Positions 1 to 49,640 of a DNA stretch of 64,000 bases are shown piece by piece; the first letter of the stretch is position 1; each line of letters opens with the position of its first letter. Source of the stretch: Carcharhinus longimanus. Taxonomy: Eukaryota. The stretch is taken from assembly GCA_030264375.1 (NCBI GenBank), contig JASCQW010000001.1:100004222-100068221 (forward strand). Reading direction: 5' to 3'. Both the position numbers and the translations under genes were made by a program. Below the pieces are notes generated by a model. That model saw only the letters and a program-made list of their open reading frames with translations. It was not told the DNA's origin and did no database searches.

Positions 1-38
1 GATCTCACACTTAACCCCCAGCCAAAAGGCCAAGAGGC
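1..38 (-). pseudogene. Degenerate copy of the U2 snRNA 5' end at the 3' junction of a Tx1-clade LINE (runs off the window edge)
   Basis: Minus strand reads GCCTCTTGGCCTTTTGGCTGGGGGTTAAGTGTGAGATC versus vertebrate U2 5' GCTTCTCGGCCTTTTGGCTAAGATCAAGTGTAGTATC. GGCCTTTTGGCT and AAGTGT are shared exactly. Confidence 0.7.
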
Positions 39-2175
39 TTTTGTTTTGCAAAAATATACTTTGTTCATAAACTATCGGCAAGAACATTACAAACATTCCA
101 AAATGGCGATCGCACAAAGTGGGATTGTATTCAAGTTCTTTACATATATCAAGTAACACTCTGAGATACTTCAATACAGTCAAAGAAACCTTACAGACAT
201 TTTACAATGGTCCTTACAAATGGTGCAAAGATGTTTAAAGGTTGTCTGCATTGAACAAGTTGCACTCCAAAGTGCTTCAGTACAACTGAGATACATGTAA
301 TATTCACTGTTTTTAAAGTTTATTTATTAGTTTCACAGGTAAGCTTACGTTAACATTGCAATGAAGTTACTGTAAAAATCCCCTATGACTACACTCTGGC
401 ACCTGTTCAGGTGCACTGAGGGAGAATTTAGCATGGCCAATGCACATAACCAGCACTTCTTTCCAACTGAGAGAGGAAACTGGAGCACCTGGAGGAAACC
501 CACGCAGACACAGGGAGAACATGCAGACTCCGCACAGACAATGACCCAAGCCAGGAATTGAACACAGGTCCCTGGCATTGTGAAGCAGTAGTGCTAACCA
601 ATGTGCCACCATGCCGCCCTGGGATGCATTCATTGAGTCATTCAGCCTGAGGGAGTCCTGCTCCCCTCAGTTCACTATGGGTGAAAGGTCTTAGATAATG
701 ACCATCTCCTTTGCACTGCTGTGGCAGCTGCCCAAAGCTTTATTCTATCCCTCAGCAGGTAGTCCTGGGCATTGGAATGTGCCAGTCTGCAACACTGTCA
801 GGGGCAACTCCTTATACTGGAAACCCAACAAGTTTGGGCAGACCAAAGAGCGTCTTTTACTGAGTTGATGACTGATGATCCTCCAACAGCATCTGATGTT
901 TGTCTCAATGTGCATCCTTGGGAAAAGCCCATAGAGCAGAATCCTGTGTCATGGAGCTGCTAGGGATGAACCTCAGCAAAAACCATCTTACCTCTCTCCA
1001 AACCGTCTTTGCAAAGACACATTCCACAAGGAAGTGGACAACAGACTCTTCCCACCACAGTCACCTTGAGGGCAACATGCAGATGAGACTCCAAGCATGT
1101 AGGAAGGATCTAACTGGGAGGGTCATTCTCACCATCAGCCACGCTGGTTCTGATGCTTGTTTGAAAGATCTGGTGATGAGGCATTCTGTCAAATGGTGCT
1201 GACAGTCAGCGTAGGGGATTATCCAACAGGACCCACCATCCCCTTTTCCCGTAGGTCCTCTAGGACGTTACATGCAGACCATTTCCTTATGGATTTGTGG
1301 TCACAAGTGATTTTCTACAAAAACTTTTCCATGAGAGACAGGTGATGTAGCATGGTCCAACTACTTGGAGCATTCTGCAGCAGGGTAGCCAGACCCATTC
1401 TGCAGCAGGGTGGCCAGACCCATCCTTCACAACACTGGGGATGAATAGAATGTTAGCAGGCAGTGGCAATTGGTGTTTATGTACCAAGGATCTACGCACA
1501 GCTTGATGCAGCCAAACAAAAGGTGGCCATCGGGATTAGACGTGTTTTTCACCCCTTTATGTAGAGATGTGTACAACACGTCCCTATGAACGCGGTCCAT
1601 TTTTGACTCCCAGATGAAGCGGAAAATGGCTGGGGTGATTGCCACAGAGCAGGAATGAGGAATGGGCCAGACCTGCACCACATACAGCAGCATCAAGAAC
1701 ATCTCAAACTTGATGACCTGGTTCATATCTGCAATGGGGAGACAGCGTCACTACCACATGTCCAGTTTTTAGTTCATTATAGCTATTTGCTCCCTTCAGA
1801 TTTTCATGCATGTCTTTGTCCCTCCGAACCATATCCCCAGCACCCTCTGGCCATCTGACCTGACAATCAAGGGTCAATCTGCCCAGTTCCCAAAGAACAT
1901 GGTGTTACTCTTGCTTCGATTTATCTTGGCACCCAAGGCCAGTTTGAAAAGACCGCAGATGTTGGATCAGTTTGCACACCGACAGCAGATCTGAGCAAAA
2001 GATGGTGACGCACTTAAGTCCAGATACTTCCGTCATCTGGGATTGTCACCCCTTTTAAACCCAAATCTTCCCTGATGGACGCAGTAAAGTGTTCTGTACA
2101 ATACACAGACAGGACAGGAGAGTGAGGCCAGCCCTGCCTAACTCCAGATTTAATTGGAAAACTTTCTGATTCCCA
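39..2175 (-). mobile_element. Decayed, 5'-truncated Tx1-clade (L1 group) non-LTR retrotransposon, Keno-like; ORF2 RT/C-terminus plus 3' UTR, interrupted by a SINE
   Basis: Minus-strand peptides SFPIKSGVRQGWPHSPVL (GVRQGCPLSP RT motif), LLYVVQVWPIP...IFRFIWESKMDRVHR, IINSVKDALWSA and CRLAHSNAQDYLLRD are typical of Tx1 ORF2. Frameshifts and stops are present. A-rich 3' end at about 39-70. Confidence 0.85.
313..619 (-). mobile_element. HE1-like tRNA-derived V-SINE, tail variant B, nested in the Tx1 element
   Basis: Head GGGCGGCATGGTGGCACATTGGTTAGCACT with A/B-box-like motifs, V-domain-like GGGTTTCCTCCAGGTGCTCCAGTTTCC, tail ending TAATAAATAAACTTT. Confidence 0.9.
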
Positions 2176-2329
2176 CCCAAGAAGCTTCAATTCATTTTTC
2201 TTTTGGTTCAGATTTCCTTCCACTAATAGTTCTAGCACCTGCTCCAGACAGAATTTGGCCCTCTTTAAGAGCTGCAGCCTGGATTTTGGGTGACACAGCC
2301 TGGTTTTGGGTATTGTAGGCTAGCTCTGG

Positions 2330-2520
2330 GAGCTGTTGCCTTCGCTAAATTTGAATCTCCAGCCCCTGCTGAGGTGTTCAATCACTCAGTCACACCTTTT
2401 GCTCTGGCTGCACATTGCAATAATGCAAATTAGCAGGCAACATGAAGCTGGCTTGCTGCCTGCATCAGAAGCAATGGGCGCGGGTTAATCTCAATGAATG
2501 TCCAATTGAGCTCCTGCAGT
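2330..2520. repeat. Interspersed repeat fragment shared with about 9360-9530 (unclassified)
   Basis: AATTAGCAGGCAACATGAAGCTGGCTTGCTGCCTGCATCAGAAGCAATGGGCGCGGGTTAATC closely matches AATTAGCAGGCAGCATGAAGTTGGCATCCTGCCTGCATCAGAAGCAACAGGCGCAGGTTAATC. Confidence 0.7.
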
Positions 2521-3679
2521 TTCTTTGAAAGTAAATGATTTAATTTTCAAATAACTTCCTATGTTGGTGCATAAGAACCTGGAAGCCCATGTTTGGTATT
2601 TAGCTGCAAACAGATTATTCATGGCTCATCCTGGCTTTTCTGAATCAAAATTTTAACAGGAGTGAGCATAAAATCAGGATCAGCAAATATTTTTCCCTGC
2701 AGGCTTATAAATAATTCAGTGGTTATTTTATTATGGAATAGTTGTGGGCCAGCCTGCACATTTTATATAACCTACCTCACAGAACTGGAATTCCTTGTGA
2801 ATAATATTACCCTTTCAGTGTATTCCTCATGCTTGACTATTGCCCCTGGGGTTTGAGTGCATATCATTTGCTTAATGTCCTCAGGAAAAAGGAGCGAACT
2901 GAACATTGTTTGGTATGAGAGTCCATTGGCTTGATTTGTTCTGATCTCTGCTGTTTTTCTAACCTTGTATATTGGATGCCAATTTTCTTGCCAAAACAAT
3001 GGATGGACCAGCAGTTGTACTACTTTTAGATTGGCACAATAATAAAAGCAATTCATTGGAAAAATTCAGAAGCAGCTCATAAAATCCAGAAAGGTACTTT
3101 GGTCTCAATTACAATCGGATCATCTTCTGAGAGCTCTGTGATGACACAATTATTTATATTTCTTCTGGGCTTAAAAACAACAGGCTGAAGGCAAAGTTTT
3201 CAAGGATTGGAAGAGGAGTTATTCCAAGGAAAAGCAGCAAATTAGTAATTTTGCAGCAAGTTTGTGAAAATGATGGAATTTGCTGTGGACAGTTGACCTT
3301 AGCTGTTCATTATACTGTGTTTATTTTATATATAATGGAGATTAAGTAACTAATGGCTCAATGTGTCCTGGGTATATTCTATTGGAATCATTTTACATGA
3401 GGTTTAAAAGGTGTATTCAACTACTAAATAATAACCATTCTGTGTACGGCACAGTTTGAATTATAAAAACACCTTTTAAAAGTTTGGGAATTTTTTTTGC
3501 CATTTAAAGGGAGCTACCATAAGTTTGAAGGATATTCCCACAGACCTATTATCTTTTATATTAATGCAGATTAATTTTGGTGTCTCATTAATGCAATGTT
3601 CTGAGTCGAACTCAGGATGAACATGGCCAGATTGAATTTTAATGAATAGCGTGAGGCTACCTGAAGAAAAGCAAAAGGT

Positions 3680-3935
3680 GAAAATAAAAATACAAACATT
3701 GCTGAAAAGAGAGACGTATCACAGAAATTTCTTGTCTCCCATTCATCAGGACAAACACAAGAATGCCATATTTCAAACAATTACAACAACTTAGACTGCC
3801 GGAGAAAAGTTTAGTTTATTCATTAGTCTCACGAGTCGGCTTATATTGACACTGCAATGAAGTACCTGTGGGGGTAAAAAAAGGATGTTGATTGGTTGGC
3901 AAGTCGATTGTGATTGGCTGAGGTGTTGCCATCTG
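3680..3935 (-). mobile_element. Probable Penelope-derived terminal fragment (homologue at 50420-50590, + strand), split by a SINE tail-B fragment at about 3808-3868
   Basis: Reverse complement matches 50420-50590 (TTTGAAATxTGGCATTCTTxTGTTTGTCCTGAxGA...TCTCTCTTTTCxGCA). Confidence 0.55.
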
Positions 3936-3940
3936 CAATA

Positions 3941-4145
3941 TGTAAATGTTGGGGCATTGGGATGTGTACTGCTCCTTTAAGAGTATGAGTCATGTCACTG
4001 CTGTGATGGAATTAGCTCCTCCCAGGATGGAACCTCGTTAAGCAGTCTCAGATCTAACTGTGGGGCAGTGCACACCTGTAATAAAGAATTCACCAGTGTT
4101 TAAGTTTTGAGGCCTACTTTGTGGTTCCTCTTGTACCATATTTCA
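3941..4145 (+). mobile_element. Possible solo LTR remnant (Gypsy-like), related to 14116-14330
   Basis: Starts TGT, contains AATAAA, ends CA. Shares CTGCTCCTTTAAxAGTAT and GCAGTCTxAGAxCTxACTG with 14116-14330. Confidence 0.4.
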
Positions 4146-4749
4146 ATAAGTGTATATAAAACACCATGGAGAAAGCAACTGGAACTAAGGATTCTTCAGT
4201 TCTCAGGTAATTCAAATAAGGTGCAAAGCTTGAACCTATTCTTTCTCTTTGTAAAGAATGGCTTTCTACATATGAATTTATGTCACTCCCAGCAAGCATT
4301 AATGAGCCATTATTAGCTTGACTTATTATCTTAAATTGGTTGCTAGTGTAGCTATTCATCCGCTCAAGAAAATGTTGAAAACCTTTGAAGTGATAATCAA
4401 AATTACACAACATGTTTGTCATCATCCAAAAAGTGAGGTTATCTAACGTCATTAGGATTCAATCTTAAACTTCAGGACGACAGGATATTTTGATAGATGG
4501 ATAGTGATGGAGCAAATATTTTTACTGGGAATAATATTAAAAAATGTGCTTCTTAATCTGTAAATTATAGCCTCTACATGAGGAAAAAAAATGAAGCAAA
4601 ACAATAACGTGTTTGCACTGGGATAAATGCCCATTCGTATGTACTTTTTGCGTGTCCCTGGCTGTACAAATATAATTTTCATATCTATGGATGAATGTGT
4701 ATGTTCGTGTTTGATGAGAGTGTGGATTGTCTTGTTAAAGTAAAATTAT

Positions 4750-5350
4750 CAGTCGAGGCATAGATCACCAAAGCAGGGAAATCATGTTGGAGTTCTATAA
4801 AACTTTGGTGAGGCCACAACGGGAATCCTGTATGCAATTCTGGTCACCACGTTATAGGAAGGCTGTGATTGTACTGGAGGGAGTACAGAGGACATACACC
4901 AGGATGCTGCCTGATATGTAACATTGAAGTTATGAAGAGAGGTTGGACAGGCTTGGATTGTTTTCCTTGGAGCGGAGATTAAGGTGTATGAGATTATGAG
5001 GGGCATGGACAGAGTGGATAAGGAGCAGTTGTCCCCCTTAATTGAACGATCAGCCACGAGAGGACACAAGTTCAAGGTGAGGGGCAGGAGGTTTAGATGG
5101 GATGTGAGGAAAAAGCTTTTTTATTCAGAGGGTGGTGATGATCTGGAATGCGCTGCCTAGGAGGGTGGTAGAAGTGAGTTGCCTCACATCCTTTTAAAAA
5201 GTACCTGGATGAGAACTTGGAGCATCATAAAATTCAAGGCTATGGGCCAAGTGCTGGTAAATGGGATTTGGTGGGAGGTCAGGTGTCTCTCGTGTTGGTG
5301 CAGACTCAATGGGCCGAAGGGCTTCTTCTGCACTGAATGACTCTGTGATT
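4750..5350 (+). mobile_element. CR1/HER1-like LINE 3' end
   Basis: Degraded CR1 ORF2 C-terminus (YKTLVRP...QFWSP, TRGHKFKVRG). The 3' tail GCAGACTCAATGGGCCGAAGGGCTTCTTCTGCACTG is shared with the HE1-like SINE tail A. Confidence 0.9.
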
Positions 5351-6099
5351 TTAAGTTCGGCCAAAATAAAGGCCATCACCTATGATTGCAAGACCACTTT
5401 CACATATTATCTTTTAACAATGATTTGCTATATGAAAACAAGATGCAACCAACTTAAATTCACATGAAAGATCTTTCTCGTGACATTTTCACAATATCAT
5501 TTTCCTGAGGAACAGCTTCGCCTCCTAAAAACCCACTAAGGAAATTTGGGCACTTGCGTACATTTTTGTGAGTGTGATTGAAAAATCATGTACAAAACAT
5601 GTCCAGATTTCCACATGTGTGGCTGGTGGAGGCAGTACCTATCCATGAGTGTAGAATCATGAAAGAAAAATGACCAGCTCTTCAGTCCAGCTAGTATTAG
5701 AGAAACTGCACTGAGATTCTTTGTTACAAAAATCGATTGTAATTATGGTCTATTTTCTTTTAGCATTGTTTAGAAAATTGTATTGCTTTGTTGGTTTGTT
5801 TAGGAAACAATTTTCAGGGACCCTAATATTAGAGAAGTTCTATAGCTCATCAGTTAGCCCACTAATTGAGAAACATCATCATAAATTGATGTTCAAATAA
5901 GAATTATTAGTCTTAATTTTCTACAGTGACTTTATGTGGGAAGCATTTTAGAAGTATCAAAATTCAATGACTATTGTGATGGTTTTTGTAAGCGCTAGAT
6001 AATCGAAGCCTGTAAAGTCCTGGTTTACTTGTCTCCCAAGATAAGCTAGCAACTGGAATTGCACTTTGAACAATGTTGCTCTGTCTTTCTCCAGAGTGT

Positions 6100-36886: not shown

Positions 36887-37528
36887 CTGTTTACCAAGGT
36901 AATGGTCGATTCGATACATCTCTTCCTCTCGGAGTACCTTCTGCAGTTCCTCAGCTAGTTGCTGAGCTGAATTAAAGTCGTGTCCAAAGGGTTTTTCTAG
37001 AACAACACGTAACCAGGATCCTGTTCTGGGGCGGCAGGTTGCGTTGATTTTGGTCGCTATGTCAGCGTAGGCAAAAGCAGGAACAGAAAGGTAAAAAAGA
37101 CGGCCACCCTCTTCAAGCCCTTCTTGCGCCAACACTTCCTTAATCTTCTTATCCAGGGAGGAATAGTCTTCCTGGGTGTCCAACTGATGGTACTGGGTCG
37201 ACTTGAGAAACCGGTCCTTGAGCAGCGCACACCTGACTGACGGCACGTTTGGTAAACACGTCAGGCCCTTCAGTATCTCGTACATCGCCGGTGAGCCTTC
37301 GGAGGAACTGAGTCGAGTGCCACCGTAAAAACTCAGGCTGCGCGCGCCCCCATCCTGATCCACGTAGCATTGAAATAAGCCCTGCCACAGGTACTTCCTA
37401 GCCAGGTCGCCGGTGGCCCCCACCAAGACAACGGAAATGTGGGACTTGGATTCTGTCGTAAGCACCTGCAGTGACGCACAGAGGAGCAGTCTGTATACAA
37501 CGGAGATCATTGTTACATCGGGTGTCAT
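36887..37528 (-). CDS. H6PD: Hexose-6-phosphate dehydrogenase (GDH/6PGL ER bifunctional protein), first coding exon, 214 codons
   Basis: Hydrophobic signal-peptide-like N-terminus; VVLVGATGDLARKYLWQGLF (NADP-binding motif); GRLFYLSVPAFAY; sequon NAT in INATCRP; WLRVVLEKPFGHD; EEMYRIDHYLGKQ. Acceptor TTTCTTTAAG|G at 37537/37536 and phase-0 donor CAG|GTGAGT at 36887/36886. The signal peptide and single-exon N-terminal domain separate it from G6PD. Confidence 0.97.
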
Positions 37529-47629: not shown

Positions 47630-49640
47630 CAAAAACAAAAAATGTTGGAAAATCTCAGAAGGTCTGACAGCATCTGTGGGGAGAGAGTAGAGCCAACGTT
47701 TTGAATCTAGGTGACTCTTTGTCAGGGCTGAGAGCAAAGAGAATCAGCAGAGATTTATACTATAATGGGGTGGGGTGGTGACTGGTGTGGAATTGGGCAA
47801 AGGAAATGTAAATGAGGATACAGAAGTCTGACAATGTGCTAAGAGTGTCCATTAAGTGATCAGAATGTGAGAATGTCAGGACAGGTATACAGATTGTTAA
47901 AAGACTGCCTGAGGAATGTGGAAGTTGCCCTGAAGTGAGGGTGGGGGGTTTTGGAAAGAAGGAGAACTGAAATATAGAAGTGAAAAAGAAGGATGATAAA
48001 AATGGATGAATGAGATGAAATGAAATGAAGTCAAATAAATGGAAATGGGGTGAAGGTGGAGGGGAGAGTTTTGCTCTGAAGCAATTGAGTTCAGTGTTCA
48101 GTCTGGAAGGCTGTAAAGTGCCCATTCGGAAGACGAGGTTCTGTTCCTCCAGTTTGCGTTGGGCTTCACTGGAACCTTGCAAAAGGCCAAGGACAGACAA
48201 GTGGACAGGAGAGCAGGGTGGTGTGTTGAAGTGGCAAGTGACAGGAAGGTCAGGTTTCTGCTTGCGGATAGATTGAAAGTGTTCAGCAAAGCTGTCAGCC
48301 AGTCTGGTTTGATCTCCGATGTAGAGTAAACCACACTGGGAGCAGCGAATACAATAAACCAGACTGAAGAAGGTGCACGTGAAGCGTTGCTTCACCTGAA
48401 AGGGGTGCACCTGATGAGCGGCAGGGAGATAAAGGGGCAGGTGTTACAGTTTCTATGATTGCAAAGGAAGGTTCCATGGACAGGCAGTGAGGTGTTGGGT
48501 ATGATGGAGGAGTGGACCACGGCGTCCCAGAGAGAGCAGCCACTGTGGAATGCTGACGGGGTAAAGGGAAGATGTTCTGGGTAATGACATCACACTGGAG
48601 TTGGTGGAAATAGTGAAGGATGATCCTTTGAACGTGGAGACTGGTGAGGTGAAAAGTGAGGACAAGGGTGGACCCTATCCTGATTCTGGGAGGGAGAAGA
48701 GGGGGTGAGAGCAATTGTCAGAGGGATGGGTTGTGTGTGGTTGAGGGCCCTGTCGACCACAGTGGGTGAAAAACCACAATTGAGGATTAAGGAAGACCTA
48801 TCGGCAGCACTATTTTGGAAAGTGGCATCATCAGAACAGTTGCCACAGAGGTGAAGGAATTGAGAGAATGGGATGGAGTCCTTCCAGGATGTGGAGTGTG
48901 AAGAGCTGTAGTCAAGGTAGTTGTGGGGGTCAGTGGGCTTGTAATGGATACTAGTGGACAGTTTATCACCAGAAACGGAGACAGAGAGGTCAAGGAAGGG
49001 AAGGAAAGTGACAGAATGGACCATGTGAAGGTGATAAAGGGATGGAAATTGGAAGCATAATTGATAAATTTTTCCAGGTCTGGACAGGAGCATTAAGTAG
49101 CGCTGAAATAGTTGTCGATGTACGGATTTAAAGGAGTTGTGGGAGGGGGCCAGAGTAGGACTGGAACAGAGAATGCTGTGCATAACCCATAAAGAGATGG
49201 GCATAACTGGGACCCATGTGGGTGCCCAGAGCCACTCATTTTACTTGGAGGAAGTGAGACGAGTTAAAGGAGAAATTGTTGAGTGAGAGAACCAGTTCAG
49301 CCAGACGGAGGAGAATGGTGGTGGATGGGGATTGTTCAGACCTCCATTCGAGGAAGAAGCAAAGAGCTTTCAGGCCATCCTAGTGGGGAATGGAGGTGTA
49401 GAGAGTTTGGATGTCCATGGTGAAGTGGAGTTGGTTTGGGCCAGTGAACTGGAAGTTGTTGATGTGGCATAAGGCATCAGAGGATGTAGGTAGGGACTGG
49501 ACAAGAAGAGAGAGAATGGAGTCAAAATAGGAGGAAGTGAGTTTGGTGGAGCAGGAACAAGCTGACACGATGGGCCTACCGAGGCAGTTCTGTTTGTGAA
49601 TTTTGAAGGAGGTAGAAGTGGGCTATGCAGGGGAGGAAAA
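47630..49640 (-). mobile_element. Decayed Penelope-like retroelement (RT plus GIY-YIG endonuclease)
   Basis: RT motifs FTMDIQTLYTSIPH and LPFLDLSVSVSGDKLSTSIHYKPTDPHNYLDYSSSH; GIY-YIG region FTCTFFSLVYCIRCSQCGLLYIG...FAEH and C-terminal RKLEEQNLVFRMGTLQP. Multiple frameshifts. Confidence 0.95.

Follow-up and report, generated by a model that had tools for sequence, protein, structure and literature searches.

What brought U2 snRNA-like sequence to the end of a Tx1 retrotransposon in a shark? The window, by which we mean the whole stretch of 64,000 nucleotides of Carcharhinus longimanus DNA analyzed here, begins with such an arrangement. The first-pass annotation had described Tx1 ORF2 and 3' UTR on the minus strand followed by 38 U2-like bases, and this description is confirmed. 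It had explained the junction by Keno-like targeting of U2, with the Tx1 copy either lodged in a U2 pseudogene or having taken its U2 flank along to an off-target site. To evaluate this explanation, we compared the Tx1 copy, the U2-like bases and the sequence to their left with related loci across the genome.

The Tx1 remnant and its genomic setting

The features of the locus are collected in Table 1. Read from 2178 to 702, the ORF2 remnant is 39% identical to residues 315-810 of the homologue P0001, with 16 breaks read as X. Its 5' truncation falls within the reverse transcriptase (RT), stops and frameshifts are numerous, and homology to other copies of the family starts at 2179 on the minus strand. 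Endonuclease, RT and zf-RVT domains are present in relatives of this element, and no intact ORF2 was found in the 20 stretches checked, where the long frames are runs of N. An AP-like endonuclease with its cut in U2 at nt 38/39 is a mark of Keno. As a query, the 3' UTR at 39..310 returned 1048 candidates, of which 40 were scored, at 79-85% identity; its identity to the majority of 30 copies is 92%. Positions 68-39 hold the terminal motif, which closes with four terminal A, one fewer than had been quoted in the first-pass annotation. The repeat that splits the 3' UTR, in which ARAGORN called no tRNA, presumably resembles the shark HE1/V-SINE type. As an insertion, the copy in the window is dead and probably inert.

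Table 1. Features at and around the Tx1-U2 junction (window coordinates)
Feature	Positions	Strand	Basis
5' end of old U2-derived SINE copy, beginning at U2 nt 4	1..38	-	left-flank and family alignment
Right copy of likely target-site duplication	30..40	-	SINE start (9 nt) lies within it
Remaining Tx1 3' UTR with AATAAA-like signal, T-run and A-tail	39..310	-	family matches
Abundant repeat of ~310 nt, a later insertion splitting the Tx1 3' UTR	311..621	-	10 further window matches, 72-85%
End of ORF2 and initial part of Tx1 3' UTR	622..701	-	continuity with family copy L200 across the insertion
Tx1 ORF2 remnant (3' half of RT to C-terminus)	702..2178	-	frameshift-aware alignment to P0001; tree
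Left copy, likely 11-bp target-site duplication of Tx1	2177..2187	-	10/11 identical to 40-30
First coding exon of H6PD	36887..37510	-	93% identical to Mustelus asterias H6PD

As first annotated, the host is a shark and the Tx1 copy has the orientation of H6PD, whose first coding exon (37510-36887) is on the minus strand. Neither the window nor the 9.2 kb on its left contains the remainder of this gene, and the Tx1/SINE array is therefore likely intronic and in sense. Two further observations concern retroelement sequence nearby. A 290-nt piece of ORF2 (window 1058-1347) recurs at L209:8308-8597 with 98% identity and in opposite orientation, ~620 bases left of the window and beside an N gap, as a local duplication or an assembly artifact. 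Two long minus-strand frames at window 47760-49240 look like fragments of another retroelement, possibly GIY-YIG/Penelope-like.

The U2-like bases and their continuation

On the minus strand, window 38-1 aligns to nt 4-40 of the U2 gene of this genome (L061), and 28 of the 38 positions agree. Of 19,586 38-mers drawn at random from the window, none reached that score against U2, which rules out a chance origin; the coincidence that the first-pass annotation had allowed for thus does not apply. An Rfam search of window 1-6000 alone gave no U2 match and 8 weak unrelated matches, and with the left flank added (L001) a U2 match appeared at 28 bits (E 0.022; the gathering score is 46). Left of the window, a diverged U2 derivative runs for ~156 bases more to an A-rich end, followed by a second fragment of Tx1 3' UTR. 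An age gradient along this array was considered and is not supported: identity to the family majority averages 88% across the family, and the downstream fragment, at ~85%, is close to that value.

The U2 gene sequence that was sought past nt 38 in the left flank is not there; a diverged SINE stands in its place, with the indels and the new tail of that SINE. The Tx1 copy therefore does not sit in a U2 gene or an ordinary pseudogene, and the 38 U2-like bases belong to a separate SINE copy of U2 origin, of which they form the 5' end.

A Keno-clade family dispersed away from U2

By the account in the available parts of PMC4640811 and PMC6136364, the 3' flank of Keno begins at U2 nt 39. The flank in the window begins at U2 nt 4, and neither a Keno-site insertion of this copy nor a carried Keno flank is compatible with that start. 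The 3' flanks of 30 copies of the family also speak against the original proposal: 5 of them, the window included, are followed by a U2-derived SINE, 25 have unrelated flanks that are not U2-like, and none ends at U2 nt 39.

Among 87 homologues there was no named Keno protein, and the Keno lineage is represented in our tree by four elements with a U2 nt 39 flank rather than by the named KenoDr1 and KenoFr1. To obtain these, metagenome contigs were scanned for U2 nt 39 immediately after an A-tail. This gave 7 stretches, 4 with a usable ORF2; the nearest named proteins of these Keno-site ORF2s are teleost. The tree holds 29 rows chosen from the 67 of a first FastTree. Five shark Tx1 rows form a clade (100/100) that joins amphibian elements (99/97), and together these join three Keno-site elements (100/100), with the fourth placed outside, in a sister clade. 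A constraint holding the Keno-site elements and their neighbors together was rejected (p-AU 0.005), in a comparison whose group was named after the tree had been seen and which used 29 of the 67 rows and no mixture model. The label Keno-like is thus upheld by the nesting of ORF2 among Keno-site elements and fails for targeting of U2 nt 39, so that this is a Keno-clade family without the Keno target. It resembles Keno in the endonuclease-RT-zinc-finger ORF2 seen in relatives of the window copy, in its position among U2 nt 39-flanked elements and in an end composed of AATAAA, T-run and A-tail. It differs in being dispersed, as is a younger sister family, in which 1 of 30 copies ends at U2 nt 39, that copy being the query itself.

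Residual U2 targeting exists in this genome. There are six junctions of an A-run with U2 nt 39. Two follow a sister Tx1 tail directly and one follows a tail with a spacer in between; a younger SINE precedes two more, and the sixth follows sequence of unassigned kind. These junctions, along with the Keno-clade ORF2, lend some credit to a Keno copy inside a U2 gene or pseudogene, or one carrying a U2 flank. Such an origin of the window junction is nevertheless very improbable, given a flank that starts at nt 4 instead of nt 39 and bears the indels and tail of a SINE, and a family with no end at nt 39. At L176/L197 and L190, the tail of the younger sister Tx1 is joined directly to U2 nt 39 in a true Keno-type junction; these loci have a U2 variant in common and may be one event. 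Separately, two small contigs (L062, L063) hold U2 genes unlike shark U2, and L062 matches the U2 flank of the metagenome Keno-site contig L274; both contigs may be contamination.

An old family of U2-derived SINEs

The window copy of the SINE is ~195 nt long and derived from U2 nt ~3-180, and family members measure ~195-235 nt. It returned 224 candidates as a query, of which 40 were scored, and a 29-nt stretch of its tail has 32 exact matches, compared to 0 for the reversed control. In the alignment, 77 columns separate 60% or more of 54 copies from the U2 gene. Among the changes are the loss of 8 nt close to the 3' end (52-53 of the 54 copies) and the gain of 4 nt after U2 nt 110 (48-52), and a new, non-U2, A-rich tail is common to the family. 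Because the copies were collected by searching with the window copy or with its tail, the degree of sharing is inflated. Nested subfamilies are distinguished by 12-nt and 6-17-nt duplications. The window copy carries 42 of the 77 diagnostic changes and belongs to a short subfamily (9/54) that lacks the internal duplication acquired later. The majority sequence, to which copies are ~80% identical, folds better than shuffled sequences (z -2.7, with U2 itself at z -3.4). Selection on U2 structure was considered on this ground and not adopted: the predicted U2 fold differed from the known one, and pair counts were left unused for that reason. Density was sampled in 80 pieces of 10 kb at even spacing, together 695,386 non-N bases. 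One old SINE copy was found there, corresponding to ~3,900 genome-wide (95% interval, 100-21,500), and three matches to U2-derived SINEs of all kinds, corresponding to ~11,600 (2,400-33,800).

Could these repeats be independent U2 retropseudogenes or variant U2 gene copies, with no SINE family behind them? The whole element aligns to U2 with the Sm-site region roughly kept, ordinary U2 retrocopies exist in the genome, and a variant snRNA gene might act as master. However, the shared indels, nested subfamilies and common non-U2 end need master copies, and most copies have altered the bases that pair with the branch point (U2 nt 36 in 46/54). Moreover, six other U2-like copies, in which the diagnostic changes of the SINE are nearly absent, group apart with support of 1.0. 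We regard this as the least probable of the readings weighed here. On these features, the element is a SINE family that was amplified from masters, SINEU-3-like, in a shark.

Other U2 derivatives are present as well. Further U2-derived SINE variants lie at L252:1690-2082 and L310:2041-2145, one of them directly behind a Tx1 tail. Dispersed full U2 copies at L066, L067 and L227 include ~40 nt of the downstream flank of the U2 gene with the same endpoint, and resemble retrocopies of unprocessed U2.

Shared insertion sites and order of arrival

Apart from the window, 4 of 29 Tx1 ends are followed within ~20 nt by a same-strand copy of this SINE, where 0.0035 would be expected from the upper bound of SINE density (P 5e-12). 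The SINE thus shares insertion sites with Keno-clade Tx1. From the other side, 8 of 55 distinct loci selected by SINE have a direct same-strand SINE or Tx1 neighbor. Three loci (L018, L056, L080) repeat their spacer behind the SINE tail, as expected where successive insertions reuse one site. The two partners also end alike, with AATAA, T-run and A-run in 13/54 SINE tails and 11/30 Tx1 tails, compared to 4/694 flank pieces.

Target duplications provide an indication of order. The score of the duplication in the window (2187-2177 against 40-30) was reached by only 7 of 3000 upstream pieces chosen at random, and its overlap with the SINE start suggests that the LINE arrived second. A duplication at L206 likewise overlaps the SINE start (0/1000 controls) and ends ~9 nt before the junction. 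These are the two among six tandems examined with a matching duplication at the Tx1 5' junction; that of L207 is not above chance, and the Tx1 5' junctions of L204, L205 and L208 are ill-defined. Across the SINEs as a whole, target duplications are weak: those scoring at least 8 were seen in 5/32 old copies versus 2.9% of controls, and 3/21 young copies were above threshold versus 2.6% of controls. No shared target was found in the flanks, nor a preference like that for Mariner-N4: 4 of 53 empty sites lay inside another repeat, compared to 22 of 100 random points, with repeats judged only against loci collected in this analysis.

Our preferred reading, which we hold to be likely, is that a Keno-clade Tx1 stands head-to-tail before an old U2-derived SINE, with the LINE probably arriving second at a site used by the SINE because both were likely copied by the same LINE enzyme. 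We infer that Tx1 ORF2 mobilized the SINE. Master SINE RNAs would be reverse-transcribed by this protein with target priming at the A-tail. Since each insertion would leave the left target intact, later insertions would land just upstream, and the spacer would be an old target duplication. The Tx1 lineage would descend from U2-targeting Keno, retaining only a residual U2 preference. As to transcription of the old SINE, our best guess is a master inside a U2 gene, served by an external promoter.

A single chimeric event is the main competitor, with RT jumping from SINE RNA to Tx1 RNA or a Tx1 transcript reading on into a downstream SINE and taking it along. In the window and at L217, the latter from the younger families, the A-tail meets the SINE start almost without a spacer; template jumps have been proposed for the 5' extensions of SINEU in the available part of PMC4494074; and at L259:1458-1500, U2 nt 1-43 stand directly before a 5'-truncated Tx1 whose 3' flank is non-U2. 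Yet spacers vary by locus (0 to ~20 nt) and recur after the SINE tail, the downstream SINEs are from different subfamilies, and the first bases of the SINE are contained in the left duplication. A chimera is therefore unlikely.

A younger family with a U2 head

A younger SINE family, ~310 nt in length, has at least 844 candidates and stands at 94% identity to its majority. At its start is a head of U2 nt 1-40 that ends at the Keno cut and is identical to the U2 gene over nt 4-40; the element also has a second U2 head, and its body is 77% like the old family. When loci were picked for an exact U2 head, 15/16 continued as the younger SINE. Three copies (L181, L185, L227) are followed by U2 from nt 39 onward. 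The copy at L282 carries 17 nt of the upstream flank of the U2 gene, a sequence that occurs at only 3 places in the genome; at L282:1476-1838 (G000:C98 near 83,584,566) a U2 fragment that stops at nt 38 comes before this flank. A SINE master with the full U2 promoter was not found among the best 40 of 106 candidates, young repeats often being assembly gaps. Parts of the younger SINE occur in sequencing runs from 12 studies (20 rows), with no RNA run listed; we place no weight on this listing.

The U2 nt 1-40 head, the nt 39 junctions and the upstream flank at L282 fit masters located in U2 genes under the U2 promoter. Going by these sequences, a Keno-clade enzyme may occasionally drop a SINE into a U2 gene at nt 38/39, where it would gain the U2 promoter and a fresh nt 1-40 head and become a new master; we give this idea of homing slightly less than an even chance. 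Template switching to U2 snRNA is an alternative source of the head.

Comparison with crocodilian SINEU and implications

The closest precedent is crocodilian. As far as the available text of PMC4494074 (Kojima 2015) goes, Keno-clade Tx1-Mar and SINEU have common sites and form tandems, SINEU is found in crocodilians and none elsewhere, and it is left open how SINEU is transcribed with no internal promoter. Like SINEU-3 (and SINEU-1/-2) as described there, the shark element is a non-coding retroposon of <500 nt made from internally altered U2, with a new 3' end and an A-tail. The tandem arrays, the sharing of sites with Keno-clade Tx1 and the recurrent U2-derived 5' additions in related families are further points of likeness. 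The differences begin with the host, which is not a crocodilian but a shark. Where the same text gives SINEU-3 a ~50-nt deletion, the shark SINE spans U2 nt ~3-180, has lost 8 nt and has gained duplications. Nor did we find a target common to its copies, whether of the Mariner-N4 kind or another. Similarly, Tx1-Mar in that account is a Keno-clustered Tx1 away from U2 genes that has sites in common with U-snRNA-derived SINEs, as here, but it targets a Mariner element, and no such target was seen for the shark Tx1; Tx1-Mar itself is absent from our tree. The shark SINE probably originated independently of crocodilian SINEU.

Our search of the literature found snRNA-derived SINEs in crocodilians only and none for cartilaginous fish, with Repbase, Dfam and subscription journals lying outside it, so that a database entry may exist. 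The available part of PMC5381603 mentions such SINEs for crocodilians only, and a term search of the available part of PMC13343379 found no mention of snRNA, Tx1 or Keno.

That one shark has an old and a young SINE family, together with a Keno-clade partner and with copies that sit at the Keno site, suggests that this pairing of LINE and SINE arises repeatedly. The shark system offers concrete loci and predictions, namely, a transcription start at U2 +1 and masters in U2 arrays. If true, homing into U2 genes would explain how promoterless SINEU elements get transcribed, and the shark families would represent a second, independent origin of a SINEU-type element from a Keno lineage.
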